Source: Collinsella sp. (GTDB lineage Bacteria > Actinomycetota > Coriobacteriia > Coriobacteriales > Coriobacteriaceae). Taken from it: DNA of 64,000 bases. Made by a program: the position numbers and the translations under genes. Under the pieces are notes generated by a model. That model did not search any database and was not told where the DNA came from. It saw nothing but the letters and a program-made list of their open reading frames with translations. The stretch is from the NCBI GenBank assembly GCA_048500675.1, contig DBFSAO010000141.1:3782-67781 (forward strand), given 5' to 3'. The first letter of the stretch is position 1. Each line of letters begins with the position of its first letter. Below, piece after piece: positions 3,867 through 54,228 of the stretch.

Positions 3867-4080
3867 AGCTCTATCCTCGCCAATTCTTTAAGAAGCCTTT
3901 ACGTTTCCGTGTAATTCCCGTCCATTATCGCGCAGGCCGCCACTACATTGCGCCACACCGCCGCACATGCGCGTTAATATGGCTGGTTGTTGTGCGCAGC
4001 CCGCAAATGCAGCGCATATTTAGGTAACAATCGGGTAAACCCCCGCTTTCGTAGGTTTTAAGTTTGTGAGGAGTCTCAGC

Positions 4081-6381
4081 ATGTTCGCTGCCGCCATCTC
4101 GCTCGTCGGTCTTGCGGCGACCGTCTACCTTGTCTTGCGCGAGGCCAAGGCCATTCGCGCTCAGTCGGGCACCGTCACCAAGGGCGCCTTCGCCTGGAGC
4201 GTCGCCTTTGGCCTGTTCCAGCTCTTTTTGACCGTCTGGGGCGCTATTGGTCTCGTCGCGCAAAACGAGCCGCTCGCCTTTGTGATGCTCATCCTGACCA
4301 ATGCCATCCTCACCGGCTGCGCTTGGGCCAGCATCGCCCGCGACCGCATCGCCCCGCGCGTCTTTGCGTTCGCCAAGCCCGACGCCCCCGCCCCCACCGG
4401 CAAGCTCGCCCGCCTGCGCGGCGCCTTTGTGGGCAAACCGCTCGTCGCCGCCGTCCTGTGCCTGCTGCTCGCCGGCGTTTTTGCGCTGCTGGGCATGGAG
4501 GTTTCGTCCAACCACGACTTTACCTGGGTCTACCCCCTATGCATCCTGCTCGAGTGGGCCATCATCACCACGCTCATGGTCGGCCTGTTCTTCCTGTTCC
4601 AGCACCACGGCGCAGCTCCCGCGGTCCTGGCCTTTGCCCTCTTTGTCCTGGGCATTGCCGAGTTCTTCGTCATCACGTTTAAATCCATGCCCATCCAGCC
4701 GGGTGACCTTTCGGCCATCTCCACTGCCGCCGCGGTCGCCGGCACCGGCTACACCTTCTCCATCTCGCTGTTCTGCGTGCTGTCCATGGGCTTTACCGCC
4801 ATCGCCATGCTGCTGTGCGAGTACGCCGGCCTAGTCGCACCGCATCGCCAGAAGGGCGCCGCCAACGCCAAGCGCATGCTGCTCACCAACCTGCTCGTCG
4901 CCGTACTGTGCCTGGGCGGTGTGACCGCACACGTCACGCTCATCGACTACTACAACACCCTCGGCATCACCGTCTACACCTGGCGCCCGCTCGAGAGCTA
5001 CTGGCGCGAGGGCTACCTGCCCGCTTTCATTAGCGCAGCGCAGTCCATCAAGCCGCCCAAACCCGCCGACTACTCCGTCGACGATGCCAAGGCCACGCTC
5101 AAAAAGTACGCCAAGGCCTACGACAAGTCCGACGCGGCCAAAAGCGACGAGCGCGCCGCCGCAAAGGAGCAGTTCGACAGCGAGAAGCCCACGGTCATCG
5201 CCATCATGAACGAGACCTTCTCAGACCTTTCCATCTACCAGAACATGCGCGCCGGCTACGAAGGCCCGCAGTACTTTAAGAACCTGTCCAACTGCCTCAG
5301 CCGCGGCAAGCTCTACGTGAGCGCCTACGGCGGCGGCACCGCCAATACCGAGTTTGAGTTTATGACCGGCAACTCCATGGCCAACCTGGGCTCGGGCGTG
5401 TACCCCTACACCATCTACAACATGGAAACGACCGGGAATCTGGCAGAGCAGTTCAAGTCGCTCGGCTATTCCACCACCGCCATGCACCCCAACCACGCAA
5501 CCAACTGGAACCGCGAGAACGTCTACAAGGACTTTGGCTTTGACCAGTTCCTGTCCATCAACGACTTCCAGGGCGCCGATACCCTGCGCGGGATGGTGAC
5601 CGACCAGGCTACCTACGACAAGATTCTTGAGCTGCTCGACCAGAACGCCGATCCTCAGTTTATCTTCGACGTGACCATGCAGAACCACTCGGGCTACGAC
5701 ACGGGCCTGCTGCCGGTCGACAAGCAGATGCATCTGAATATCGACACGACCGACCTGGACGCCAAGACCGTCGAGGACGGCACGCTGTCCGATGTCGACG
5801 AGTATGTCTCGTGCATCGAGCAGTCCGACCAGGCACTGCGCTACTTCCTCAATGCTCTGAGCAAGCTCGACCGCAAGGTTGTCGTGGTGTTCTGGGGCGA
5901 CCACCAGCCGTTCTTCCCGTCCAAGTTCAACGATAAGTGGTTTACCGGCGAGGACGACGCCACCCACCAGGAGCGCTTGTGGCAGACCGACTACATCATC
6001 TGGGCCAACTACGACGTTGCCGGCTGCGACCAGACGAGTGAGACCGACGACCTGTCCACCAACTACTTGTCCACCCAGCTGATGCAACTGATCGGCGCAC
6101 CGCTGACCGACTACCAGAAAGCGCACATGACGCTGCGCGAGTCGCTGCCCGCCATCAACTCGGTCGGCTACGAGGACGCCAGCCTGCGCTGGGCGCTCTC
6201 CTCCAACGTCACCGGTGACGACGACGCCGCCGCTGCCGCCACCAAGGCACGCGAGGATTACGCCAAGATGCAGTACTACGAGATGTTCCGCGACGGCAAG
6301 AACGTCTATACGGAGCACTTCCAGACCGAGGCCAACGAGACCGATCCCAACCTGGCGCCGGGCACGACCAAGATCAAGTAG
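4081..6381 (+). CDS. LTA synthase family / sulfatase-like phosphoglycerol transferase (multi-TM N-terminus plus extracellular sulfatase-fold domain)
   Basis: About 5 or more N-terminal TM helices, then IAIMNETFSDLS and NTEFEFMTGNS motifs characteristic of LtaS/MdoB-type enzymes. ATG at 4081 is preceded by GAGGAG; the track start is GTG at 4066. Confidence 0.8.
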   Translation: MFAAAISLVGLAATVYLVLREAKAIRAQSGTVTKGAFAWSVAFGLFQLFLTVWGAIGLVAQNEPLAFVMLILTNAILTGCAWASIARDRIAPRVFAFAKPDAPAPTGKLARLRGAFVGKPLVAAVLCLLLAGVFALLGMEVSSNHDFTWVYPLCILLEWAIITTLMVGLFFLFQHHGAAPAVLAFALFVLGIAEFFVITFKSMPIQPGDLSAISTAAAVAGTGYTFSISLFCVLSMGFTAIAMLLCEYAGLVAPHRQKGAANAKRMLLTNLLVAVLCLGGVTAHVTLIDYYNTLGITVYTWRPLESYWREGYLPAFISAAQSIKPPKPADYSVDDAKATLKKYAKAYDKSDAAKSDERAAAKEQFDSEKPTVIAIMNETFSDLSIYQNMRAGYEGPQYFKNLSNCLSRGKLYVSAYGGGTANTEFEFMTGNSMANLGSGVYPYTIYNMETTGNLAEQFKSLGYSTTAMHPNHATNWNRENVYKDFGFDQFLSINDFQGADTLRGMVTDQATYDKILELLDQNADPQFIFDVTMQNHSGYDTGLLPVDKQMHLNIDTTDLDAKTVEDGTLSDVDEYVSCIEQSDQALRYFLNALSKLDRKVVVVFWGDHQPFFPSKFNDKWFTGEDDATHQERLWQTDYIIWANYDVAGCDQTSETDDLSTNYLSTQLMQLIGAPLTDYQKAHMTLRESLPAINSVGYEDASLRWALSSNVTGDDDAAAAATKAREDYAKMQYYEMFRDGKNVYTEHFQTEANETDPNLAPGTTKIK

Positions 6382-6400: not shown

Positions 6401-6531
6401 CGTCTGCCCGGCGGCGCGGAATGTTAGGTTCCCTGCTCGGGCAGTCCTGCTCGCACGGAGAGCACATTAAGTGCTCTCCGGCTCGTGCGGAACTCGCGAT
6501 GAACCTTACATTCCGCGCCGCCGGGCAGACG
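6401..6531 (+). repeat. Long imperfect palindrome, family P copy 1 (131 bp)
   Basis: The outer arms CGTCTGCCCGGCGGCGCGGAATGT... are self-complementary, with an apical hairpin GGAGAGCACATTAAGTGCTCTCC. It starts 20 bp after the ltaS-like stop. Its reverse complement aligns to 11479-11607. Confidence 0.8.
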
Positions 6532-6594
6532 CCTTGTTGTTGGGACGTGGCTTGTCTTGGGAGTATCTGCAACATATATAGATATAGATGAGTT

Positions 6595-6625
6595 GAAGGC
6601 CACGTTGTGTGGCCTTCTTTGTTTG
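6595..6625 (+). terminator. Intrinsic terminator GAAGGCCAC-N5-GTGGCCTTC plus TTTGTTTG
   Basis: 9-bp stem followed by a T-run on the plus strand, downstream of the ltaS-like gene. The same stem sequence forms the apical hairpin of P2 (11530-11552). Confidence 0.6.
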
Positions 6626-6736
6626 CGGAAAGCGCGTCCCGGAATCTGACGTTGGAATGGGATGTAGTTTCCGGTTGAGGGTCTGTTGGGAAAGTGCGTC
6701 CCACTTTGGGGGCTGATTCTGGGATGTAGTTTCCGG
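6626..6736. repeat. Partial array (about 2 units) of the 62-bp hairpin repeat
   Basis: TGGGATGTAGTTTCCGG-N12-TGGGAAAGTGCGTCCCA-CTTTGGGGGCTGATTC-TGGGATGTAGTTTCCGG. Same unit and same orientation as the array at 10940-11435. Confidence 0.75.
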
Positions 6737-6757
6737 TTGCCGAGTCTTTGCTCGATA

Positions 6758-10945: not shown

Positions 10946-11435
10946 TTTTGCAAATGATACGTCCGATGCCCGATATCACGTGTCTCATTTTCGCCAACGG
11001 CGTGTCTCATTTTTGAGAATCCGAGATGCCGCGGAAATCTTATCCCAGCTCAAAGGCCATTTCTGGGATGTATTTTCCGTCGAGTGCCTCATCGGGAAAC
11101 TGCATCCCATTTCAAGCGTCGATTCTTGGACGCACTTTCCCCTTAGACCCTCAACCGGAAACCGCATCCCACTTTGAGCGCAAATTCCGGGATGCATTTT
11201 CCGGTTTTGCTCTCATTGGGAAAATGCATCCCGTTTCTTGACCGAATAATGGGACGCAATTTCCCGTTGGAACGCCTTTGGGAAAGTGTGTCCCACTTCG
11301 AACGCCCAGAGTGGGATGCACTTTCCGCAAAGCACCTCAACGGGAAACTACGTCCCATTCCAAAGGCAAATTCCGGGACGCATTTTTCGAAAGCCTGCCC
11401 ATCCGGAAAGCCCGTCCCACTTTGGACGCATCCGG
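10940..11435. repeat. Tandem array of 62-bp hairpin units (6 conserved plus 2 decayed)
   Basis: Units start at 11064, 11126, 11188, 11250, 11312 and 11374, exactly 62 bp apart. Each has arms GGGAYGNNNTTTCC / GGAAANNNCRTCCC around a 12-14 nt loop plus a 16-nt conserved linker. Decayed units at 10940 and 11002 reach the adhesin start codon. Confidence 0.85.
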
Positions 11436-11478
11436 GCACGGAACCATCGACCTATCAGGCCTCCCATCAATAAAGAGG

Positions 11479-11607
11479 CGTCCTCCCGGACGGCGGGGCA
11501 CGAAGTTCATCGCGAGTTCCGCACGCAAAGAAGGCCACTTAATGTGGCCTTCGTCTTGCGCAGGACTGTAGAGCAGGGAACTTCGTGCCCCGACGCCCGG
11601 GAGGACG
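11479..11607 (-). repeat. Long imperfect palindrome, family P copy 2 (129 bp)
   Basis: Arms CGTCCTCCCGGACGGCGGGGCACGAAG / CTTCGTGCCCCGACGCCCGGGAGGACG and apical hairpin GAAGGCCACTTAATGTGGCCTTC. It lies 43 bp downstream of the flavodoxin-like stop. Confidence 0.8.
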
Positions 11608-11649: not shown

Positions 11650-12207
11650 CTACTCCCCCAGCACGGCCTTCTTGGCCGCCGCCGCCATGTTGTCCAGATC
11701 TTCCTTGGTGGGGTGATCCTTTGCGGCAACCCAGTTGTCGAGCAGCAACTTAGCGCGCGCGTTGTCGGGATCTTGCTCGAGCATGGCCTCGTAGCGCTGC
11801 TTGACCGCAGGGCCCATCTTACCCTGGCACATCGCCCAGCCCGCAAGCTCGGCATCATCGGCCAAATTGGAAGTTACGCGGTCGATAATCTGCTGATAAT
11901 AGCTCTGGTCGGCGCCAAAACCGCAGGTACCAAACAGGAAGACGCGCTTACCGTGCAAGGCGGAGAGCAACGCCGCGACCGAAGGCGTGCACGCGCCCTT
12001 GTCGCACCAAAAACCGACGAGCACCGTGTCGGCCGCGCAGGCGCCCTGCGCCTCGAGCGCAACCTGATCTGCATCTGCATCGTCACTCAACGCCGCGGCA
12101 TGGACAAACTCAACGCCCGCAGCCTGCAAAGTGCGCTTGATCGCACCCGAAACCATCCTGGTATTACCGCTCTTGCTGTTAACCACCAAAGAGCACGTCA
12201 TAGTCAC
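11650..12207 (-). CDS. Flavodoxin-like family protein
   Basis: N-terminal LVVNSKSGNTRMV (flavodoxin phosphate-binding-type loop) and about 185 aa. Confidence 0.65.
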   Translation of the reverse strand: MTMTCSLVVNSKSGNTRMVSGAIKRTLQAAGVEFVHAAALSDDADADQVALEAQGACAADTVLVGFWCDKGACTPSVAALLSALHGKRVFLFGTCGFGADQSYYQQIIDRVTSNLADDAELAGWAMCQGKMGPAVKQRYEAMLEQDPDNARAKLLLDNWVAAKDHPTKEDLDNMAAAAKKAVLGE

Positions 12208-18801: not shown

Positions 18802-18941
18802 CAGGCGGTTTTGGTCGGCTACCCGCGAGTGCCGGCAGGGCGCTTGGTAGTCGAGCGATCCCGCAGGCGAAGCCGAGGACCAGCGAGACACCAAGCGCCC
18901 TGCCGGCACTCGCGGGTAGCCGCGGCACCAAAAAACGCCTG
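18802..18941 (-). repeat. Long palindrome, tentative family P copy 4 (140 bp)
   Basis: 32-bp perfect inner stem GGCTACCCGCGAGTGCCGGCAGGGCGCTTGGT / complement, extended by CAGGCGGTTTTGGTC / GCACCAAAAAACGCCTG. The loop carries CCGCAGG and CCGAGGAC motifs also seen in P3. Confidence 0.7.
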
Positions 18942-19133
18942 CGCACTCGATGGATTCGGATGCCCGACAGAGGCTCCTTATGGCTGCTTCCTTCCGGACC
19001 TGACCAGATTCGGAACATGTCGTCATCCGAACCCATCGAACGCGCTAGGCGCTCGGTATATCTTACCTGCTCCCGCCCGCCACGGCAAGTGGGGCGAACC
19101 CATCGGATGGATTCGCCCCACTCGTCCATATCG

Positions 19134-22100
19134 CTAGCGGCGCCTGCGGTACAGGACCGCGCCGCCCGCGACGGCCAGCGCGCCGATGCCGGCCATGGCG
19201 CCGAGCGCCTCGACCGGCAGGCTGCGGTCGCCGGTGTCGGGCATACCGCCCTTGGAGCCGTCACCGCTAGCGCCGCTGCCGGAGCCGTTATCTGAACCGC
19301 CGCCCGAGCCGCCGCCCGGCGTGCCGGGGTTCTCGGGGGTGCCGGGGGTCCCGGGCTCCTCGGCATAGCTGTTGGTGAAGACCGGCGGCATGTTGGCGTC
19401 GCCCTCGTAGGAGACCTTCGCCGACAGATAGCCCGTCTTGGTGCCGTCTGCCGCCTCGTCGCTCACCGTGACGACGATCTTGTGCACCGCCTTGTCGTAG
19501 GTCACGTGCGCCTGGCCGTCGTCGACCTCGCTCACCGTGAAGGTGTAGGTGCCGGCCTGCTTGAAGGTCAGCGCATCGAACGTGACGCTGCCGTCCGCGG
19601 CATTCTTGGCGGTCGACATGACCTTGCCGTCCCGGCTCTTGAGCTCAAAGCTAAACTGGCCCGCCTTGAGCTCGGCGCCCTTGAGCACCTTGGCGGCGCC
19701 CAGCTTGAGGGTGACGGGTGCGGCCTCGTAGCCGTTGGTAAAGGTCACCGAGGTGTCGCCCACGGCATTGCCCTCGGCATCCGCCAGCTCGTGCCTGACG
19801 GTGAGCGTGCCGTTTCCGGCGTCGGCAACCGTCGTGCGCACGCGGTACGCCGCCCTGTCGTACGTCACGCCGCCCGCCGTGCCGGCGATCTCGCGCAGCT
19901 CGTAGCCGTGCGTACCGGGCGCGGTGTAGGTAACGGGGCTGAGCGCGACCGTGCCGTCGGCGGCGTTCTTGCCCGTCGCCGCGACGCTCTCACTGCCGTC
20001 GGCGGCAATCTCGACCAGCTGGAACTCGAACTCGCCCTCGGCCAGGTCGCGGCCCTTGAGCTTCTTGTTCACCTTGATCTGGTCGGTGACGGAGCTCGGC
20101 GTCGGGTTCACGCCGTAGGTGTTGGTGAACTCGAACGCGCCCTTGCCCTCGGGCGTACCCTCTGCGGGCAGGACCTCCGCGACGAGCGTGCCCGCGTTGG
20201 TGTCCTCGACCACCTTGACCGCGAAGGTCCTCGTCGCCGTCGCGTCGTTGACCACGCCGTCGACCGAACCGGACTCGCTCACCCGGTAGGCGAACGTCTT
20301 GGTGCGCAGGCCGCCGCCGTCGATCTTGACGTCATCGAGGTCGCTCGGCTGCCTGAACGTGACGTGGCCCAGCTCGACGTTGCCGGCGGCGTCGTTGGTC
20401 GCCTCGGTCACCGTCTTACCGGAGGCGTCGACCGGCGCGGGCGCGCCGTCCAACGGCGTGATCTTAAAGGTGTACTTGCCCGCAATGTCGGCCTGCGTGA
20501 GGCCGAGTCCGGCCTGGCCGAGCGCCAGCGTCTTGGTGCCCGCAAGGTCGACCGTCGCCTCGTTGGTGCCGTAGCCGTTCACAAACGACAGCGTGCCGTC
20601 GGAGCCCTCGGGGTAGACCACGGCCACATCCAGCCCGCCCTTGCCGTTATCGGTCACCTTGACCGTGATATCGAAGCTCGAGGCGGTCGCCGTCACGCCC
20701 GCGGACAGCCGGTCCGTGCCGTCCTCGGATACGGTATAGGGAATGACCCAGGAGCCGTCGGCGGCCCTGGTGGCGATGCCGTCCGCCACCATCCGCTCGA
20801 GAGCGTCGGTGGTGTAGGCAATGGGCGAGAACGCAAGTCCCGCGGCCTCGCCGTCGCCGGAGGCCTGGTTGGTCGCGGTCGCGACCGCGTTACCCTGGGC
20901 ATCGCGTACGGAGAACGAGAACTCGCCCGCCGCCGCGGCGCGACCCGTCAGCGTCTTGGTGGCGTTAATTGCCACGTTGCCCTCGCCGCCGAGCGTTCCG
21001 GTGGCCTCGTAGGAGTTCTCGAACGCGACCGTCACGGGCGCAGGCGTCGCCATGGCGTCATCTGCCGTGGAGACCTCGCTGCGGGTAACCTCGACACCGT
21101 CCTTGGCAACCGTGGTCGTGACTATGAGCTTGCCCGTCGCGGTATCGTAGGCGGGCGCGATGGTCACCGTGCGCGGCGCGGTGTCGTTGGCGTAGCCCTC
21201 GCCGCCGAGCTTGGTCTCGGCGACGGTGAAGCGGTAGACCTTGCCCGCATCGGCATCGGTGAACTTCACGTCGCCCTCCGCGGCACCGCCGATGAGGTCG
21301 ACCAGGTCGGCCGCGCCGTCATCGGCCGCGGCCACGGCGTAGGCGTCCTTGTCGGTCTTAAGGCCGAGCTTGGCGGCCGTCTCGGCGTCCGCGGTCACGG
21401 TGAAGGCGAACTGCCCCGCCTCCATGGCGCGACCACAGAGCGTCTTGGACAGGCGCACGCCCGCGCGGGCCGAGTAGTCGAGCTCGGTCGTGTAGGTGTT
21501 GACGAAGTCGCCGCCGCTCACCTCCGCGATCGCGGGCGTCGTGACCGCGAGGTTGCCGGAGCCGTCATCGGTCACGGTCACCGTCATCGTGGCGACGTGG
21601 CCGTCGTAGGCCACGCCGGCGATGGCAGAGCCGTCATCGGGCCTGACCTCGCGCACCGTGTAGGTGAGGGTCTTGGCGCGCACGCGCTTGCCGCCGACCT
21701 CGGCGAACTCGGCATCCTTGATGTCATCGAGCGTGTAGCGGATGGAGCCGAAGTCGAAGGCGACCTTAGCGCCCGCCCTGGTGCCGGCGGCGGCCGTCAC
21801 ACTGACGGTCTTGGAGCCGTCGGCAGATCCCTCGGGCATGGGGGCGCCGTCCTCGCCCGCAAGCGCGAACTGGAAGCTGTCGCCCTCCGCCCAGTCGCGA
21901 CCCTTGAGCGTCTTGGTGAAGAGCCCCGCGGTGGAGACGTCCCTGCCCTCGGCAGCCGTTCCGTACGTATTGGTGAACGCGACGGTCGAGCCGTCCTCGG
22001 TCACGGCGCCTTCGGCCTTGGAGCCGTCAGCCCCGTTGACCGTGGTCGTATAGCCCTCGGCGGCGTCCTCGGCCACGGTGTAGCGCGCGCCCACGGGCAG

Positions 22101-25100
22101 GCCGGTGATGGCCTTCTCCTCACCGTCCTTAAGCTTGAAGGTCGCCTTACCGTCCATGAAGGTCACGGCGTTCTTGCCCTTGCCGAAGGTGCCGGAGACG
22201 GGCTCGCCGTCCCCGTCGGTCAACGTGACCGCAAAGCCGAACTCGCGCTGGCTGTCGCCGACGACGACCGTCTTCTTGACGGTGAGGCTGCCAGTCTTGG
22301 CGGTGTTGGTAAAGACCGCCGCCTCGACCGTGCGCTCAGCAGCGTCGCCCGCATCGTCGGTCAGCTGTGCAATCTTGGTCTTGGCAGACAGCTTACCGGC
22401 ACCCTCGTCGGTCACCGTAACGGTGGCACGATAGGTGGCCTTCGAAAACGTGAGTGCCGCCTCGTCACCCGACTGCTCGGTAATCACATAGGTATAGGTA
22501 CCGGGCTTGGTGTACTCGATGGTACCGAAGTTGCCGACCTGGGCATCCTTGTGCAGCTCAATCGTCGACACGCCGTCTTTGACGCCCTTGGGCATAGGTG
22601 CCTCGCCCTGGGCAGTCAGCGTCATGGTAAAGGCATCCGATGTCATCCAGTTGCGTCCGGAGATCTTCTTTTGCACCTTAAAAGCGTTTTCCACCTTCGT
22701 GGACTCCACGCTGTAGACGTTGGTGAAGCCCACCTGCGTCGCCTGCCCAACGGTACCTTTCTGGGGATTCGCCTTATCGGCAACCGTAAAGCCGTCCTCA
22801 CTCGTCATGAGCTCACCCTTGGAGTCGAGCTCCTGCACCTCGTAGTGCGCACCCGCAGGCAAGGTAACCGTGACGGAGCCACCGGCCTTAAGCGCGATGG
22901 TGTCACCGCTCTTGATCTGCCCACTTACATAGGTACCATTGGTGCCACTGGGGCGACCGGCGTACGCAAAAGTGCCGGCCAGAGGCGTTGTGCCATCGGC
23001 CTGGTAGAGCAGCACCTTAAAGGTAAATGCCTTGTTGGGCGCGGTGATGCCTTCGGCGGCCGTGACCGTCTTGCTCAACGTCAGGCGCCCGTCAGAGACC
23101 TCATCGGTGGTGGTGTTGGTCTTGACGGCAGGGTTGTTGCCGACCGCCACCGACGCCTGGTTGGAGATGTCGCCCGAAGCGCCGCCGCTCTTGAACGCGT
23201 CCTCGGTCACGCGAACCTTAAACTGAACCGTGCCCTCCTTGCCGGCGGGAACGTCCGCCAGCGTCCAGGTGAGGTTGCCGTCGTTGTCCTTGGAGCCGGC
23301 ATCCTTGTGATCGCCCGCGAACTCCACGAACTTGGTCCCCACGGGAACGGTATCGGTAATCGTCACCGTGGCAGGTGCGCCCTCGGTGTTCTTGTAGCCG
23401 ATGGTGTAGGTGAGCTCATCGCCCAACTTAACGCCCGACCCCTTCGAATCCTGAGCATCGCTCTCGGACTTCTTGGGCACGTAATTGGTCGTGGTGCCGG
23501 TATAGCTCTTGTTGTCAACCGTTACGGTAGCTTTGTTCTCAACGGTGCCGACCGCGCCCTGGGCGTCCTTCACAGCGTCCCCGGTAATCTTGACGCGCAC
23601 GCGCACCGAACCGTGGCTGCTCGCAGGCTGCTCACCCAGGTTCCAAGTAAGCGACTGACCGCTCGCAGCGCCCTTATCGGCATGCTTGCCCTCAAAGGCC
23701 TCGAACACAACGCCGGCAGGAAGCTCGTCGGTCACGGTCACGTTGGACGGAACCAGATTACCGTTGGCATCGGCCTCGGTATTGACCCAGTTGATGGTAT
23801 AGACGTAGGAGTCGCCCACAGAAAGCAGCTGCCCGTCGATGTCCACATTAGGCTTCGCGACCGTGCCGGTCGTCTTGACCTTATCGCGCGTATTGTGGAA
23901 GACAATCTTGCCGTTCTCGGTACCATCGCGATAGGTCACCCTGGGCGTCAGCGTGCCATCGTTGTTGTCGGTCACCTCGAGCAGCACGCGACACGTCGCG
24001 GATGTATCCACGGGGCGGACGCCCTCGGGCAGGTTGGCCAAGCGCTCCTTTGCCACCAGGTTAAAGCTGTAGGTGGTGGTGTGGTCGGCATTGTGCCGCT
24101 TGGTGGCAACGCCATCGTTGACGGCGCGGGCAAGGTCAATCGTCTGCTCATCAGTTCCGCTGGTGGCATCGCCAAGCTTAAAGTAAACCTTACCAAAGTC
24201 GACCTTTGCTTTGCCGTTCTCACCCGTCTTGGTCTTACCCTCATCCATCTTTTCGAGCGAGCCATCGGCCTTCTCGGCATACAGGTAAAACGTATACTGG
24301 CCAGCCTCGATCTTGTCGCCGGAGTCCATTACCTTTTGGGCATGGAGGCCGTCGAATGTTCCAGTCGCAGCGTAGCTGTTGGTAAAGAATACCTGAGCCT
24401 TGGCAGCACCGTTCTCGGAGCTAAAGGTCTTCGTATCGCGGGGCTCTTCAACGTCGTTGGCGTCATAGTGCTTGACCGTGGTCACGGTATAGAGCGAACC
24501 GTCGTCGCGCTTCTTAACCGCAATCTCTACCTTCCAAGAGGTTGAGTCGTATGTATAGCCGCCCTTGCCGCCGCCATTCTCGACAACCTTGTAGGTGAAC
24601 GTCTTGTCTGCATCTTCCGTCGCGAAGGTCAGGCCGTCCAAAATACCGGTGTGGGACGTGCCATCGGCCTGCGGCTCATCGTTTGTAACGACAAGCTCTC
24701 CCTTATCCTTGTCCGCACGCAACAACTCCTTAAGCTTTTCGGTTGAGACGGTGTCTTCGCCCGTTACCGTAAAGCCAAACATGCCGGCATGCAGGTCGTG
24801 CCCGTTAAGCGTCTTGACGATCTCAAGACCGCCCTGGAGCTCGTAGCTCGTTGAAGTTTGGTAACTATTGGTGAAGATGAAGCCTTCCGAGCCGGTCGCA
24901 CCATCGGCGCGGGCCACAAGCTTGCCGCCCTCATCGGTTACAGTGATGGTCAGGTTATAGGTGTGCGCATCATACGTCCACTCGCCGAGACCGCCATTCG
25001 GGACCAGCTCGTTAATAGCAAACTTATACGTGCCCGGCTTGTTAAAGGTGAGCTTCGAGAAGTTAACCTGATAGTGCTCCCCGTCCTTGAGGCCCTCCTT

Positions 25101-28100
25101 CGTTTGCTTCTTCTCGGCATAGCCGTTGTCCACGCTCATCGAAGAGCCGGTGATGAGCTTGCCGTTGATGGCAGTCTTGGTAGCATCGTCAGCCGCGGTC
25201 ATGGCAAAGGTGAACTTGTCCGGAGCATTGGCACCGACAACCACCTTCGTCACAGACGGAGTATAGGTTGCCGCCTCGGTGACCGTATAGGTGTTCTTGA
25301 ATTTGACCGTCGCGACACCGGTGGACGTCGCACCCGACGGGTAGATCCACTGGCCCTCAAGCTCATCCTTGCCATCGACCTGCTTGCTTACCGCTGTCGT
25401 GACTCTAAGCGTACCGTCGCCGTTATCCGCCACGACAGCCCTAACCGTATGGACCGTATTGTCGTACGTATAGCCCGTCGCTTTGTCGTCAATCTCGCTC
25501 ACCGTATAGGTGAACGTCTTGCCGGCATCATCCTGAGTGAAGATCAGCCCGCCCGCAGGTACCAAACTCACGGTCTTGGGAGCATCGGCCTCGACACTTG
25601 CAGTCTCAAAGACCTTGCCATTCGTGGAAATGCCAACCTTGCTGGCAGATGTCTCATCGGCAGGCTTGACGATATAACGGAACGTGCTCTTGGGCGAGCC
25701 AAAAATGGTCGCGTCCTTGGGATACGTCAACGTCTTCTCGATCTGCAAACCGCCAGCGGCGCTATAGTCGAGGCTTGCCGCATAGTGGTTCACAAACGAG
25801 ACGGTGGGCGTCGTGGCGCCGGCCTCGCTTGCGTCGTACTGCTGCACGTAAGTATTCGGTTTTTGCTTGAGCTCGACGATCTTTTCGTCCGTCAGCGCGC
25901 TCGCATCGGCGCCGTCGCCCAGCAGCTCCGTCACACCCGCGCCCTTGAGCACGGTCGTCACGGTATAGAGCTTAGCGGGGTCGTTCTCGCGTGCAAGAAC
26001 CTTGACGAGCACGATAGCGTCACCAGCGTAGCCGGTGTCATAGGTGTAGCCGGCAGCCGCAGGCTGGTTCTCGTGGATGCGATAGGCAAACGTACGCCCC
26101 AGGTCCTGTTCCGTGAGCTTGCGGGCAAAGAGCTTCTCTTGCCCGCTTGCGCCCACCACGGCACCGGACACGCCAGTCCCCGCAGCCTTATTGGACAGGC
26201 TAGCCTCGGCGCCGTCGACCGATGTCTGAGCGCCGTTGTACCAAAGGCCCGTCACGGCAAAGGTAAACTGTCCCGCGGCAGAAGCGCGACCCTCAAGGGT
26301 CTTGCTGACCGTCACGCCACCAAAGGTGCCCGATGCATGGTACGCGTTGGTAAAGGCAGCCTTGTCGGTTACGACCTTGTCCGCATCGGAGGCACCGGTG
26401 TTGGCGTAGGTCACGCTCGACACGCGCAGCATGCCCGTGTGGTTGTTGCCCGACTCGTCCAGATCGGTCACCACAACGGTCGCGCGTGCGGTGTGCTTGT
26501 CCATGGACATGCCCGCCTGGCCATCCTGCGCAGCTTTCTCGGTGATGTTGAAGCTAAAGGTGCCTGCGCGGTTGAACGTCACGGTCGGGGCGGCTTCGGT
26601 GCCAACAAAGGAGAACGAGGCCACGCGTCCCGACTCGGGCGTGCTGGCGACTGCCTGGTTGGCGTTAACGGCAACAACCCCATCCTTCACCGCCTGTGCA
26701 GTGGTTTTGCTCAAACCAGTTGCGTTGGCATCGTCCGCAGCAGCGGTGAGGTTAAAGGTATAGCGTTCGCCCTGGTTCCAGTCGCGACCGCTCACAGTCT
26801 TTTGGCCCTGCAGGGTCACGCTCGTGGGCTCCACGCTATATATATTGGTAAAGGAAGGTGTGGCATCCTTGTCCAGCTGCTTTACCGAGCCGTCCTCTGC
26901 AACCTTGTAGTACTCGATCGAAGTCTGGATGCCGGCACCCTTCTTGGCGTTGCGCACCAAGGCATAATAGACCGACCCGTCGTAGGTCATGCCCGTAATG
27001 CTACCGAGATTCTCAGCGAACTTGTACACGTAGGCGCGTCCCGCATCCGCCTTGGCGGTATAGGAGATCGCCGGCCATGCCACCGTACCGTCAGCGTTGT
27101 TGCCCACGGTCACGGTATTGTCCTCGGCACCCTCGGGCATGGGAGCCGTCACGCTCGCATCGACCGTATTGGGACTGAACACAGCGTTGACGTCCGCATA
27201 GCCGCCAACGCCCTCGAGCGTAAAGCTAAAGGCGTTCTGGGAAAGCGGGAAACTCCCGGCGTTGTCGGTCAGGATCTTTTGAGCATGGATGGTGATCTTC
27301 GCTTCGTGTGTATCGTAGTGGTTGGTGAAGGTTGCAACCTTACCGGCAACATCCGTCTTGGTGTCGGCACCCGCGTCGTCGCACTCCTGCACCACCTTCA
27401 CGCTCGCAACGGCCAGAGCACCGGCATGGTTATCCTCCACCACGACTGTCGCGGTATAGACGGCAGCAGAATAGCTTATGCCGTCCGCACCGGCATCGGA
27501 GCCGGGGATAACCTCCTTGATGGTATAGGTGTACATGCCGGGCTTGGTATAGGTAATATCGCCAAACGTCGCCGGCTGGTCGTTGGTGAGCTCGACCGTC
27601 GCCACCTTGCTCTTGGCACCGCCGGGCATAGGAACGCCGTCGTCGGCTGTAAGCTGCGCGGTAAAGGAATCGCCATCGGCCCAATCGCGACCTTCGAGCA
27701 CCTTCTTGGCGCTCAGACCGTTTTTGGCCTCAAGTGTTACGCGGTTGGCGCTGTAGTTGTTGGTGAACTCAAGCGTGTTTTCAGCGGGAATCTGTCCGCC
27801 CGCAAGCGCGACAATCTTGCCCTCGATGGTGTTGCCAGTTCCCGACTGCTCCTCGCCACCGACCTTACGTTTCACGAGGCTAAAGCCGGCCGGAAGCACC
27901 GACTCGTCAGCAGAGCCGGTAACAGTGTTAACGATGCTCGCCAGCACGTTGCCGCTGGACTCCTCGCCCTTGGTGGTGAGCTCGCTCACGCTATACTTGT
28001 CGCCCTGCTTAAGGTCGTATACGCGGATGGTCTCGCCGGCCTTGATGGAATGGGTGTCGCCGTTCTTGAGCGTGAAAGATTTGCCCACAGCTTTGCCATT

Positions 28101-31100
28101 CGCATCGAACACGTGCGCCTCGTAGCCCTTCTGGGACTCCGGCAGGGTGAACTTAAACGTAAACGTCAGATCGCTGCCGTTCGCATCCTTGGTGGGCGCG
28201 GTAAGGCCACTGTCCGCCGTCACGGTCTTAGTCACTTGCAGGCGTGCCACGCGACGATCGGTATACTGCACGGCCGTTGCCGTAGTAAAGAGATGATTGA
28301 GCTGAAGCGTGCCCAGATCGGTGCCATTGGTGGCATCATCGTCTTGATAAAGAGCCATGCGGTTGATGCCCGTATCGGCAAAGATCGTCGCCAGCTTACC
28401 GTTGCGCTCGCCACCGTCCTCGACATAGCGCAGGATGGTCTTGGCGCCTTGCATCGTCTTGTCATAGCGCATATGCATCAAGTTGTCCGCAAGAGAAGGC
28501 GTCACACCCTTGGCGGTACTTGTCTGGCCCCATGTTAGGTTTTCGCTGGCATCTGAGCCAGTTGCACTCTGCAGCTTGCCCTTAATGTGCGTAAGCGTGT
28601 TGTCGATGGAATCGGGAGAGCCAAACTGCGCCAGAGAAGCAATCAGCGAACCCGGACCGCTCATACTGAGCACGCCGTCGCCTTCCTCGCCGGCATCCAC
28701 ATACACACCCGAATCGTCCACGATTACCTTGGTGATGGTGTTGTTGATCTCATGGCCATCTGGACTTACAGACTCACGCAGGTAGTACGTGCCCTTGATA
28801 AGGGGCGCATGCTTTGCCGAATCGAGCGGGAAGCATGCAGCACCCTCAATGTCATACGGATAGGTCATGCCGTTTGCCTGCACGGTGTCATACGGCGTGG
28901 CGCCGGCTTCAATGGCATACGTGCTGGGGCTATCGCCGGTAACATCCTCGGCCTTGTACAGCTCAAACGTCGCGTCGTTCACGGGCTTGCCCAGGTCGTC
29001 GACCTTCTGCACAAACAGGCGGTTCTGGACGTTAGTGAGGTGGATCACCGTAGAGAACTGCCTGTTTGTCGTTTGATATGGGACCATGGAGGTGTTGTCG
29101 GTGGTTGCCTCCGCCAGAGATGATGCCGTGGTGTGATACACCGCCACGGTATATTCGGACTGGGACTTGTCTTGCAACATGACGGCATACGTCTCGATAT
29201 CGCCGGGCAGCGACCTGACCGTCACCTCGTAGTCACCCTTGGTGTTGACGCCAAAGACGCTCGTGTCCGCCGATTTGGCAGCCTCGACCGCACCGGCAAT
29301 GCCGTGCGCGGAGCACAGCTTATAGCCATTGAGCGGGTTGCCCGTGACCGCCGTCCACGCTATTTCGTCCGTGTCTTTCTTAGTTTCATCGGTGCGCTTG
29401 AGCACCACGGCAAACGTCGTACCCGAGCTAATGGGGTTATTCTTATTGTCTCTTGTTTCTTTATTAAGAGAAATGGTCTCCTTGGCAGCCAGATAGCCAC
29501 CGTTCAGCCACATGCGGCTGCCCGTCCATTGCGTTGTGCCGTCGGCCATGGTGACCGTCGTCTGCGGTGCAACCACCACACCACCCGAGCCACTCGCCGC
29601 AGCTTGCTTGTACTGCAGGTGTAGCTCACCCGGCGTTGCAGTGGTCGACGAGGTCAGGCTCGAGCGGTATCCCTCGGGCAGGTCTGTCTCTTTGAGTACA
29701 AAGTAGTCGTGCCCATCAGCATGCTGGCTATCGAATGAAAGAACGGAGCCGTCCGACTTCAGAAACACCAGCTGGCCCTTATCGTCCGTCGTGCCCTGAG
29801 CGATGGGATCGCCCTGCGTCTTCCAGTTGGCATCCGACTGATACAGCGCAAACTTGGCGCCCTGGACTGCCTCACCGTTCTGATTGACCTTCTCGACCTC
29901 GGACGACGGCAGGGTGGTGAGGTTGAACTTAAGCGACATGTTCGATGCGCCCGCGCCACGCTCCAGATAGAAGAAGCTCAGCGTGTGCTTAGTGCTGTCG
30001 CGGAAGGTGTTGCCGCGGAAGTTGGTGGTATCTGCGCCGGCGGCTTTGAACATTGCTTTGATGGTAGTATCCGGAAAATACTTTGGTGAACCATTTGCGC
30101 CATCAATATGTCCAACGCGCACCACACCAGTAGCGAAGTTAATATCAAGCGTCGCCTTCTCGTGGATGCCACCCAGATCGCCCACGAGCACGCCGTCGAT
30201 ATAGACCCAGACGTCGTCGTCACCCGAGAACTTAAAGACCATGTCATTGTTATCGGTGGTCTTGCCACCCGCAGGCTGGACGAACTCCGTGGTCATGGAC
30301 ATGCCAAAGTGGTGGTTGAGCTTATCGTTCGTTCCGTCCGTTATTCCTATAGGAGAGAGCCGGCCGTTCCTCTCTTCAAAAACCTTGTCAGCCGAGTCAA
30401 AGGGGAAGAACTGACCCCGATTCGCATCCGACACGCTGTCCTTATATACGCCCGCCTTATCGTAGACGTCAAAGGAGTTAGTCGTGAAGTTATACACAGC
30501 ATAGTTGCCGTCAGAGCCGTACGAATCGTAAACGTAATAGCCATCCTTGAGCTGGAAAAGGCCTTGTACGTTGTTGTGAACGGCCTTGCCGTCCTGCTTG
30601 CCATTTGCCTGGCTGTCGTTATTAAAGAGATAATCGAGCGACTCGTCTTTGTACGTACCGTGCGTGTTATACGAGGTGTAGGTGCCAGCATTGATCGACG
30701 GATAGCCCTTTACCAGTGTGTTCTTCACAAACGAAAGACGTCCAAAGCCGCCAATAACACTTTTTCCCGTCCATTTATTAATGCCCGATCCGGCGCCGCC
30801 ATTGAACTTGAGCTGATGGTCTTTATTGATGCCGGTGTTGTCATTCTTGTTGTCGTTGTTTATGTTCTTCGAGCTGTCGTTGTCGCCGTTCACGACCCAG
30901 TAGTCGAACAGATTGACCGTAGTGCCGGTGGGATTCACCGTCTGCACGGTATGGTTGCTAAAAGGAACCGCTTGATCGGCCGACGCACTCGTCGCACCAA
31001 ACATGAGCGCACACGCCGCCAGCGGGACGGCCAAAACCCTCAGGGCACGCTTGGCGGTATCGGTTTTCTTGCCAAAAGGCTTTAGCATTTCTCGAGCTCT

Positions 31101-31118
31101 CGCACACACGCGATTCAT
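19134..31118 (-). CDS. Giant cell-wall-anchored adhesin (about 3994 aa from ATG 31118): signal peptide, PA14/fibro-slime-like domain, CnaB-type and DUF11-type repeats, about 18 pilin-isopeptide (Spy0128/FctA-like) modules, Gly/Pro/Ser stalk, MPDTG sorting signal
   Basis: Single 12-kb ORF. The signal peptide is [46 protein letters not shown] and [19 protein letters not shown] match fibro-slime/PA14-type motifs. Repeated K-x-L-x-GR ... Y-x-Y-x-I-x-E ... F-[TV]-N-x-Y module boundaries occur 18 times. The C-terminus is MPDTGD plus TM plus RRRR. ATG at 31118 is preceded by GGGGAGGG; the track start at 31271 would bury the signal peptide. Confidence 0.9.
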   Translation of the reverse strand: [3994 protein letters not shown]

Positions 31119-31154
31119 GAAGGCCCTCCCCAAATCCATGAGGACGGCAAGCAG

Positions 31155-31192
31155 CGGCTCGCTATATATGTGTGTCGTCCCCATCGATGCAA
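31155..31192 (-). promoter_or_regulatory. Candidate sigma-70-type promoter of the giant adhesin gene (TTGCAT-N17/18-TATATA)
   Basis: The minus strand reads TTGCAT CGATGGGGACGACACAC ATATATA. It lies about 40-70 nt upstream of ATG 31118 in a locally AT-rich stretch. Confidence 0.3.
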
Positions 31193-31199
31193 ATATACG

Positions 31200-31208
31200 C
31201 CCCCCCCC
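31200..31208. repeat. Homopolymeric C9 (G9 on the coding strand of the adhesin)
   Basis: Nine consecutive C residues, 8 nt upstream of the putative -35 hexamer and 82-90 nt upstream of ATG 31118. Confidence 0.95.
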
Positions 31209-31387
31209 GCGCAGAAACGCAAGGCGGGACATCGCAATATACTTAAAATTGTAGCAATTTAAACGACCCACTATTCCGCGTCAGGTTGCCACTCGGTCGT
31301 CAAATCGAACCATTCGCGCCATCAAAGGGGTTCGGCGGGATAAAACCGTCGGCAATCTTTATCCCCACAGCCCCACAAGGTAGCTAA

Positions 31388-35605: not shown

Positions 35606-36658
35606 TTACGCGACGGTGTAAACCCAGTTGTGCTTGTCCTCGACAGCACCAGACTGGATACCAGTCAGGGTCTCGCGAAGCTTCTTCATCACAGGGCCGA
35701 TCTCGGTGTATCCAGCCGGGAAGGTCACGGTCTCGTCGGCGCCGTAAACCTTGTTGTCGATTTCGCCAACCGGAGAGATGACGGCAGCGGTGCCGCACAG
35801 GCCGCACTCCACAAAGGTGCCGGCCTTGACCTCGGCCCACTCGACGGGGCGCTGGTCAACGGTCATGCCCAGGTCCTGAGCAACCTGAACGAGCGAACGA
35901 CGGGTGATAGAGGGCAGGATGGAGTCGGTGTGCGACTGCGGAACGACGAGCGTGCCATCCTCTTTCACGAACAGGACGTTGGCGCCACCGGTCTCCTCGA
36001 CATAGGTGCGGGACTCGGAGTCGAGATACAGGTTCTCGGCATAGCCCTCGCGATGGGCCTCCATCGTGGGCTTAAGGGACATGGCGTAGTTCAGGCCGGC
36101 CTTGATGTTGCCGGTGCCGTGCGGTGCGGCACGGTCATACTCGGAAACGCGCAGCTTGACGGGCTTGAGGCCGCCCTTAAAGTACGGACCGACCGGGGTC
36201 ACGAGAATGCGGAACGTGTACTCAGGAGCGGGAGCCACGCCGATCACGTCACCGGAGCCGATCATAAACGGGCGCACGTACAGGGTCGCGCCGGAGCCGA
36301 AGGGCGGAACCCAGGCGGCGTTAGCAGAAACGACCTGCTTGACGGCCTCAACGAACTTGTCCTTGGGGAACGGGGGCATCTCGAGGCGCTGCGCAGAGTT
36401 GTACATACGCTCGGCGTTCATGTCGGGACGGAAGCAGACGATACTGCCGTCCTCGGCGGTGTAGGCCTTCAGGCCCTCAAAGACCTCCTGGCAGTAATGG
36501 AAGATGCCGCCGCACTCGGAGACATGCAGGGTGTGGTCGGTGGTCAGGCCGCCCTCGTCCCACTCGCCGTCCTTCCAATGGGCCTCGTAGCTGTAATCGG
36601 TCTTCATGTAGCCAAAGCCGAGGCTACCCCAATCGATATCCTTCTTCTCGACAGTCAT
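35606..36658 (-). CDS. ilvE: Branched-chain amino acid aminotransferase
   Basis: From ATG 36658: MTVEKKDIDWGSLGFGYMKTDY..., with a class IV aminotransferase layout of about 350 aa. The track's 5-prime extension is Arg-rich and rejected. Confidence 0.9.
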   Translation of the reverse strand: MTVEKKDIDWGSLGFGYMKTDYSYEAHWKDGEWDEGGLTTDHTLHVSECGGIFHYCQEVFEGLKAYTAEDGSIVCFRPDMNAERMYNSAQRLEMPPFPKDKFVEAVKQVVSANAAWVPPFGSGATLYVRPFMIGSGDVIGVAPAPEYTFRILVTPVGPYFKGGLKPVKLRVSEYDRAAPHGTGNIKAGLNYAMSLKPTMEAHREGYAENLYLDSESRTYVEETGGANVLFVKEDGTLVVPQSHTDSILPSITRRSLVQVAQDLGMTVDQRPVEWAEVKAGTFVECGLCGTAAVISPVGEIDNKVYGADETVTFPAGYTEIGPVMKKLRETLTGIQSGAVEDKHNWVYTVA

Positions 36659-36887
36659 ATGTCGCTCCTTACATACACAGTTGCAAACTCGCGAACCCGT
36701 ACGCAAGGACCGAGGCCGGCCGCGTCGCAACGTCGCACGCCCGGAGCGTAGAGCCGGACGGGACACGCGAACGGCATCAAAGCCGATGGCACGTCGATTC
36801 GCATGCACGAGATTGTACTCCCCGCACGCGTCTGATAAAACGCTTTTCTTTAACTAAGTAAAGTATTTTCATTTGACCGAAACTAAA

Positions 36888-53943: not shown

Positions 53944-54075
53944 CTACTTCTTCCGATAGCGGCGGTTGCGGCTCGTCGACGAACCCATTACTTCGATGAG
54001 TCCTTTATCCTCCATTTTTGGCAGATGGTAGCGGACGGACGAATTTTGGCATTCCGTCTCTCTAAAACAATAGAT
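53944..54075 (-). pseudogene. Fragment (about 43 codons) of a winged-helix DNA-binding protein C-terminus
   Basis: Manual reverse translation gives ...ETECQNSSVRYHLPKMEDKGLIEVMGSSTSRNRRYRKK*, which resembles the recognition helix plus wing of wHTH regulators. The frame is closed by a stop at 54076-78 and no plausible N-terminal part exists. Confidence 0.4.
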
Positions 54076-54228
54076 TTATCTCTCTAACGTTTCGTATATC
54101 TCTCTAACTTTAGAGAGATAAGCGCCTTGTTTTAGAGAGACATTTAGAGAGATGTATCGAATTAACTGTTAGATTGCCCAATGTTATCTCTTTAACTAGC
54201 TTTCTCTTTAGAGAGACATTTAGAGAGA
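54057..54228. repeat. Cluster of 9 copies of the 9-mer TCTCTCTAA / TTAGAGAGA in a low-GC island (iteron- or operator-like)
   Basis: Forward copies lie at 54057, 54079, 54099 and 54187 (the last with 1 mismatch). Reverse copies lie at 54110, 54132, 54144, 54208 and 54220. Spacings are 22, 20, 11, 22, 12 and 12 bp. The cluster includes the perfect palindrome ATCTCTCTAACTTTAGAGAGAT and the 15-bp inverted repeat GTCTCTCTAAAACAA / TTGTTTTAGAGAGAC. Confidence 0.85.

Follow-up and report, generated by a model that had tools for sequence, protein, structure and literature searches.

The Locus and Its Neighborhood

The DNA analyzed here, referred to as the window, is a stretch of 64,000 nt from Collinsella sp. 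(assembly GCA_048500675.1, contig DBFSAO010000141.1, positions 3,782–67,781, forward strand). Two palindromic elements lie in it at the 3' ends of two genes. The first, P1 (6401–6531, plus strand), starts 19 nt past the TAG stop codon (6379–6381) of a plus-strand gene (4066–6381) whose product is an LtaS-like membrane protein of 771 aa carrying a Sulfatase domain, and the second, P2 (11479–11607, minus strand), starts 43 nt past the stop codon (11650–11652) of a minus-strand gene (11650–12207) encoding a flavodoxin of 185 aa. P1 and P2 lie in opposite orientations on the chromosome and hence share one polarity relative to the gene running into each. These two positions will be called site 1 and site 2, respectively.

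The interval between them contains the gene of a 1373-aa fn3 surface protein (adhesin) and arrays of a separate 62-bp repeat (6627–6740 and 11032–11430), each unit of which has an inverted GGAAAnnGCnTCCCA/TGGGAnGCAnTTTCC pair. About two units lie downstream of the adhesin gene and 6–7 upstream, and in genomes without this gene the same 62-bp repeats occupy the sulfatase-flavodoxin interval. Behind P1 there is also a solitary terminator-like hairpin with a T-run (GAAGGCCACGTTGTGTGGCCTTC TTTGTTTG; 6595–6625, plus strand), which is a partial copy of the core of the palindromes comprising the apical hairpin and the 3' block (83% identical to P2 over 42 nt). It occurs ~60–80 nt downstream of the site 1 element and is conserved in 59 of 73 loci.

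Some other features of the window are worth recording. A second palindrome family, represented at 18816–18922 and also found in loci L030, L047, and L119, adjoins the SRP RNA gene (18944–19039); its 41-nt center is near-identical across genomes and its perfect arms of 27–33 bp differ strongly at the same site, so that it repeats the pattern of conserved center and variable paired arms seen in the P1/P2 family. The SRP RNA gene and this palindrome adjoin a single ORF of 4045 aa (19134–31271, minus strand), presumably encoding a giant surface protein. Finally, nested inverted repeats of TCTCTCTAA-type 9-mers at 54056–54146 have the appearance of an iteron- or operator-like cluster.

Structure of P1 and P2

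P1 and the reverse complement of P2 are homologous palindromes of ~130 nt that align from end to end, as had been claimed in an earlier reading of the sequence alone, and the window contains exactly two occurrences of the 21-mer GTTCATCGCGAGTTCCGCACG (6484–6504, minus strand, and 11505–11525, plus strand), where none is expected by chance. The elements consist of an asymmetric conserved core of ~75 nt, made up of a GTTC/GAAC clamp, two blocks that are mostly unpaired and an apical hairpin whose AUUAA loop is invariant, placed between arms of 26–37 bp which vary from site to site.

In P1 the arms (6401–6431 and 6501–6531) are 31 nt long, 97% complementary and 69 nt apart. The parts of P1, all on the plus strand, are a 5' arm of type A (CGTCTGCCCGGCGGCGCGGAATGTTAGG; 6401–6428), a 3' arm (6504–6531) and the components of the core: the conserved 5' block TTCCCTGCTCGGGCAGTCCTGC (6429–6450), which is mostly unpaired or bulged, the apical hairpin GGAGAGCAC-ATTAA-GTGCTCTCC (6457–6479) of the alpha core subtype, with a covarying stem and an invariant loop, and the conserved 3' block GTGCGGAACTCGCGATGAA (6485–6503) recognized in the alignment. 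P2, read on the minus strand, comprises a 5' arm of type C (11581–11607), a core of the beta subtype (11506–11580) with its apical hairpin at 11530–11552, and a 3' arm (11479–11505). The core arms of P2 are 27 nt long with two mismatches (one G·U and one U·C), lie 69 nt apart and can be extended to 37 nt at 86%. As RNA, P1 folds with a minimum free energy of −100.3 kcal/mol (z = −11.7) and P2 with −94.1 kcal/mol (z = −11.0), values equaled by none of 200 shuffles in either case.

The stems differ between P1 and P2, each copy nonetheless remains paired, and the unpaired blocks are conserved. The apical stem is GGAGAGCAC/GTGCTCTCC in P1 versus GAAGGCCAC/GTGGCCTTC in P2, and the ATTAA loop and its closing C-G pair are invariant. 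The differing but paired stems, including the apical ones, and the conserved blocks had been described in the sequence-only reading and are confirmed here, with two amendments. The sequence quoted there for the P1 arm (..GGAATGTAAGG) was obtained by reverse-complementing the 3' arm; the actual 5' arm is ..GGAATGTTAGG, which gives one mismatch in P1. Similarly, the two halves of the conserved block given as GCAGGACTG..GAGCAGGGAAC hold, but the 2–3 nt between them differ between copies.

A Palindrome Family of Collinsella

P1 and P2 belong, as paralogs, to a dispersed family of ~130-bp palindromic repeats confined to Collinsella. A scan for the 21-mer over one genome per species gave at least 120 loci, and all of the matches listed lie on contigs of Collinsella or Coriobacteriaceae, a few of which come from mislabelled bins. 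Nearly all of the matches listed represent one locus, with the order sulfatase gene, element (site 1), variable interval, element (site 2) and flavodoxin gene, and among these matches both sites are stable across more than 100 Collinsella genomes. An element is present at site 1 in all of 73 loci. In the loci examined the element has the orientation of the preceding gene in every instance, namely 75 of 75 behind the sulfatase gene and 34 of 34 behind the flavodoxin gene.

No 21-mer match was found in viral contigs, nor was the element found in phage records. In the plasmid collection it occurs only in a replicon of 900 kb (NZ_OY725717.1; L123–L131) labelled "plasmid 6" of C. aerofaciens TSDC17.2-1.1. 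This replicon carries dnaE, recA, rho, groEL, rpsB, pnp, and ftsK, and since these are core chromosomal genes the record most likely represents chromosomal DNA mislabelled as a plasmid. A metagenome scan with the pattern GTGCGGAACTCGCGATGAAD returned two chance matches only; the true base after the core is always C, as part of the GAAC clamp. The Rfam search gave no family at gathering score, in agreement with the earlier failure to recognize a described RNA family in the element, and at E ≤ 10 only chance-level microRNA-like matches appeared. In the papers that could be searched no such Collinsella element is described.

Further members were sought with a covariance model built from 31 copies and run over the 64-kb window and ~406 kb of the C. 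aerofaciens replicon (8 of its 18 chunks of 50 kb, i.e., 400 kb, plus 6 kb around a BLAST match). This model scores P1 at 135.7 bits and P2 at 151.6 bits. The family is sparse, with three copies in the window and three in the ~406 kb of the C. aerofaciens record, of which a stretch of 300 kb has none. BLAST reported 13 places on the latter record, probably counting both strands of each palindrome, and three elements were located. The third copy of the window, P3 (35465–35589, minus strand), is a distant member with perfect 28-bp arms and a 69-nt center located 17 nt past the stop codon of a gene of 400 aa (35606–36808, minus strand), and its covariance score is slightly better in the orientation of that gene (40.5 bits on the minus strand vs. 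36.2 on the plus strand). The copies of C. aerofaciens recognized by the model lie 55 nt after the stop codon of pnp, co-oriented with it; 195 nt upstream of rnj, antisense and facing the pnp copy; and 176 nt upstream of groES, antisense. A pilin-like gene also has a family copy behind its stop codon.

The antisense copies upstream of groES and rnj indicate that the family is not strictly a 3'-UTR element. The sequence-only reading had regarded a lack of orientation bias as a mark of a known mobile repeat; on this point the family is divided, since the orthologous copies are strictly co-oriented whereas at least two paralogous sites are antisense. Apart from an AT-rich inner end (..WWAAG), the arms of one site show no relation to those of another. 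U-rich tails are lacking behind P3 and behind the copies at pnp and rnj, and in one copy (L073) the arms are decaying.

Alleles, Recombinants, and the Surface-Protein Cassette

Each site is polymorphic for whole-element types. Site 1 has an alpha allele, to which P1 belongs, with type A arms and the GGAGAGCAC apical stem, and a beta allele with type B arms and a GRAGGCCAC apical stem; site 2 has arm types C (that of P2), D, and E. Much of the difference between P1 and P2 is one between whole-element types that also segregate as alleles and recombine, and does not stem from stepwise compensation between the two copies. The presence of both core subtypes at both sites implies exchange between sites 1 and 2. 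Arm-chimeric recombinants with breakpoints inside the element and mismatched arms were found in at least 10 genomes, 6 of 73 site 1 copies are without the 3' block and right arm, and in ~30 of 33 genomes type C retains an identical pair of mismatches, one G·U and one U·C. The persistence of these mismatches and of chimeric and truncated copies shows that neither pairing nor its correction is strictly enforced.

In one site 2 element (L041:4584–4658) the left arm has been exchanged for unrelated sequence and in another (L042:7242–7315) for the arm of another family member; the cores appear to act as rearrangement breakpoints. Inversion between the inverted cores was considered as a source of the chimeras and rejected, as the adhesin gene is never inverted in the loci examined and recombination between alpha and beta alleles explains them.

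The sulfatase-flavodoxin interval (L020:1–4011 and its equivalents) is a hotspot for surface-protein cassettes. It contains the fn3 adhesin, a pilus-type cluster ending in a protein with an LPXTG-like tail (..LAATGD..SRRDKR*), or nothing. It might be supposed that P1 and P2 are functional borders of the adhesin cassette, for instance recombination sites, given that inverted copies bracket the 1373-aa adhesin gene, that the content of the interval varies among genomes and that the two sites have evidently exchanged core subtypes. However, all combinations of element and cassette exist: the adhesin occurs without a site 2 element (L114), two elements occur without a cassette (L045, L009) and single elements occur as well (L001, L004, and others). 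In addition, the cassette is never inverted in the loci examined and family copies lie at unrelated loci. The idea of cassette borders is thus largely refuted and we consider it very improbable.

Probable Role at Gene Ends

The position and orientation of P1 and P2 recall those of transcription terminators. A U-rich tail follows P1 (CCTTGTTGTTGG; 6532–6543, plus strand) as judged by reading the sequence, since the terminator scan cannot score stems with long loops, and another follows P2 (CCTCTTTATTGA in sense orientation; 11467–11478, minus strand), where the scan flags the tail CCTCTTTATT on the minus strand. The junctions of stem and tail are CC+UUGUUGUU in P1 and CC+UCUUUAUU in P2, and the U-rich tails read CCUUGUUGUU and CCUCUUUAUU, respectively.

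Behind the flavodoxin gene the element alternates with a canonical terminator. Thirty-four loci have the element and no canonical terminator, 19 have a canonical terminator (GCCTCGA..TCGAGGCTTTTTT) and no element, and no locus has both or neither. The alleles without the element carry a different segment of ~205 nt rather than an empty site, and as element and terminator alleles are whole alternative segments the 34:19:0:0 distribution represents two haplotypes and not 53 independent events. No other recognizable terminator was found in the element-bearing flavodoxin haplotype.

Stranded RNA-seq data from a related C. aerofaciens strain (not that of the window, and obtained by a method other than 3'-end sequencing) show that sense depth at the sulfatase gene is ~800 over the gene, ~60 over the element and ~100 beyond it, a fall of ~86%, and at the flavodoxin gene ~300 over the gene and 30–60 within and beyond the element, a fall of ~80%. 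The dip inside the stem probably has a technical component (hairpin bias), and 14–20% of the depth persists downstream of the elements. The elements are thus transcribed with the upstream gene and most of the signal is lost across them. P3 has different arms and flank in the strain used for RNA-seq, so that reads across it are uninformative. On the basis of the exchange with a canonical terminator behind the flavodoxin gene and the fall in RNA depth, P1 and P2 most likely act as 3'-end or terminator hairpins of the preceding gene. A plain terminator, however, gives no reason for the conserved core.

Maintenance of the Paired Arms

The pairing of the arms was studied in an alignment of 31 non-chimeric copies from many genomes, in which 98% of cells are paired, a figure inflated by the omission of the chimeras, and 26 of 48 pairs have changed on both sides. 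None of 500 shuffles reached this covariation, and sliding the partners cut pairing to 35–43%. These data support the earlier judgment that the element is a maintained hairpin and not a decaying inverted repeat. Nucleotide diversity (pi) differs sharply along the element: it is 0.14–0.16 in the arms, i.e., approximately the silent-site rate (0.12 at third codon positions of the sulfatase gene and 0.14 in the downstream spacer), and 0.0185 in the 22-nt 5' core block across 63 orthologs, which is several-fold (about six-fold) below silent sites in a block that played no part in ascertainment. Variation so far below the silent level points to purifying selection on the core, to which homogenization between copies may contribute.

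The sequence-only reading had taken compensated changes next to conserved unpaired blocks as the signature of a selected structure. Along these lines the element could be a dedicated structured RNA module of 3' UTRs in which an RNA-binding protein or RNase would read the loop and bulges and set the fate of the mRNA, the stems being kept by compensatory selection on RNA. Such a module would account for the strict orientation to the upstream gene at orthologous sites, for the transcription of the elements, for the invariance of the AUUAA loop and unpaired blocks, for the strong overall covariation and for a compensatory change of G-C to A-U in the inner helix (L111). The signature is undercut, though, by the pattern of change itself. 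G·U (14 cells) and A·C (~11 cells, by a hand tally of pair-type columns) are about equally frequent, so that there is no wobble bias; the core folds as well on the antisense as on the sense strand (−38.4 vs. −39.0 kcal/mol); and the arms evolve at the silent rate. Moreover, arms of 24, 26, 27, 28, and 29 nt exist among 51 haplotypes, in each of which left and right arms have the same length without a bulge, which means that single-base indels are mirrored in both arms. Since a lone bulge would destabilize a 28-bp stem only slightly, copying from arm to arm accounts better for the mirrored indels, which, together with arms of neutral rate, would be hard to obtain by selection on the stem. The antisense copies upstream of groES and rnj and the persistence of chimeric and truncated copies also speak against an RNA module, and a perfect duplex of ~28 bp is expected to be a substrate of RNase III rather than a stable module. 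On balance such a module seems possible but unlikely. Strong covariation is in this case not diagnostic of RNA, and arm-to-arm copying at the DNA level fits at least as well.

The explanation that we favor, with a probability of roughly 55%, is a Collinsella-specific palindromic repeat which serves as a 3'-end or terminator hairpin at both genes, whose arms are most likely kept paired largely by DNA-level copying and whose conserved core would bind a putative ligand. According to this explanation, the element forms part of the 3' UTR of the gene before it, with which it is transcribed, and the long GC-rich stem followed by the U-rich tail would end the transcript. A change arising in one arm would be either removed or copied into the other, most likely through intramolecular template switching at the quasipalindrome during replication, a mechanism described elsewhere (PMC7202029) that we would extend to the present case. 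Selection for a stable hairpin probably acts too, and the core would be held by purifying selection (or homogenization) for its putative ligand, either a protein or a nucleic acid.

Mobile-Element Readings

A dispersed family with an asymmetric conserved core, found in both orientations at some sites and including chimeras that join arms of different sites (L042), also suggests a selfish element, mobile but non-autonomous and comparable with a REPIN or with the ends of IS200/IS605, whose folded core would be copied by a Y1 (HUH) transposase with termination as a side effect. A candidate enzyme is encoded in the C. aerofaciens record (NZ_OY725717.1 220955–221767, minus strand; L128:20955–21767), a RAYT-like protein of 270 aa with an IS200-like Y1_Tnp domain and a C-terminal HTH. 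It scores 34.8 bits with Pfam PF01797 (cut-off 23), and its best NCBIfam match, "REP-associated tyrosine transposase" (REP_Tyr_transpos), gives 37 bits, far below the cut-off of 80. Transposases of this kind usually carry a His-x-His (HUH) motif at the position where this protein has GNHVRLV, and neither hairpin repeats nor family copies were found on the flanks of its gene. As a link to the family the protein is a lead only.

Other properties of the family are difficult to reconcile with mobility. The copy number is low in the window and in the ~406 kb covered of C. aerofaciens, in more than 100 genomes among the matches listed sites 1 and 2 have remained stable, and a clean empty site was not encountered. 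Paralogous sites have unrelated arms, which makes the copies look old. Direct repeats indicative of target-site duplication flank none of the eight copies inspected, the pnp and rnj palindromes simply extending outward, and no conserved terminal inverted repeats were found among copies. A selfish element of this sort is accordingly rather doubtful, and the earlier failure to recognize a MITE in the element is borne out by its unconserved terminal repeats and the lack of target-site duplications. An attC (integron) site was rejected by inspection, given that attC has conserved ends and a variable center, which is the opposite of the element.

A related proposal, which we regard as improbable, is a self-maintaining DNA hairpin in which a dedicated enzyme, for example the RAYT-like Y1/HUH protein, would recognize the folded single-stranded core and either re-template one arm from the other or install the core next to gene ends, building site-specific arms. 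If this were true, the family would be a repeat that conserves its center and not its ends, the inverse of every described REPIN and MITE.

Significance

The family holds a caution for RNA discovery, as compensatory changes and conserved loops may arise in a DNA palindrome without RNA-specific selection, and covariation screens such as R-scape would label the element a structured RNA. It constitutes a natural test case for the length of time over which perfect palindromes persist in a bacterial genome and bears on how repeats turn into terminators in the Actinomycetota, a phylum with poorly defined termination signals. Strong conservation of the core implies a binding partner in an abundant genus of the human gut. 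In practical terms, assemblies break at the elements, which also serve as points of recombination in a hotspot of surface adhesins.

Comparison with Known Systems

The elements are REP/MITE-like intergenic palindromes that differ from both classes by their conserved center and variable ends. REPINs have conserved ends (REP 16-mers) and a variable, compensated spacer (PMC3116915, PMC3337134). Like REP/REPIN sequences and their RAYTs, the present family consists of extragenic hairpins of ~100 nt that are dispersed and vertically inherited, in which compensatory changes preserve the hairpin and ~70 nt separate the paired conserved parts, and a RAYT-like gene is present in one C. aerofaciens record. 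The architecture is inverted, however, with arms unrelated between sites in place of conserved end sequences; copy number, as judged from the stretches covered, appears far lower than the tens to hundreds per genome of REP/REPIN; RAYT genes are typically flanked by copies of the element whereas the RAYT-like gene of C. aerofaciens is not; and the host belongs to the Actinomycetota, class Coriobacteriia.

In bacterial MITEs the terminal inverted repeats are conserved and the target site is duplicated (TA in Correia) (PMC10969869). Those that fold in mRNA, such as Correia/NEMIS and ERIC, resemble the family in size (100–155 bp), intergenic location, co-transcription with neighboring genes and long hairpins able to terminate or destabilize transcripts (PMC10969869), but the element described here has neither the conserved terminal repeats nor the duplications.

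With intrinsic (Rho-independent) terminators P1 and P2 share the location just past stop codons, the GC-rich stem and U-rich tail, mutual exclusion with a canonical terminator behind the flavodoxin gene and the fall in RNA depth, and the apical hairpin and 3' block of the core also stand alone in terminator-like form at 6595–6625. In contrast to such terminators, the stem has 3–4 times their length, a conserved and structured insert of 69 nt stands in place of the "loop", the sequence of the element is conserved across unrelated genes and some copies have no U-tail or lie upstream of genes.

Template switching at quasipalindromes, finally, makes imperfect inverted repeats perfect in E. coli reporters (PMC7202029). 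This process can transfer substitutions and indels from arm to arm, as the mirrored indels require, but it has been described as a mutational hotspot in laboratory reporters and not as the long-term keeper of a family of repeats (PMC7202029), the role that it would have in Collinsella.
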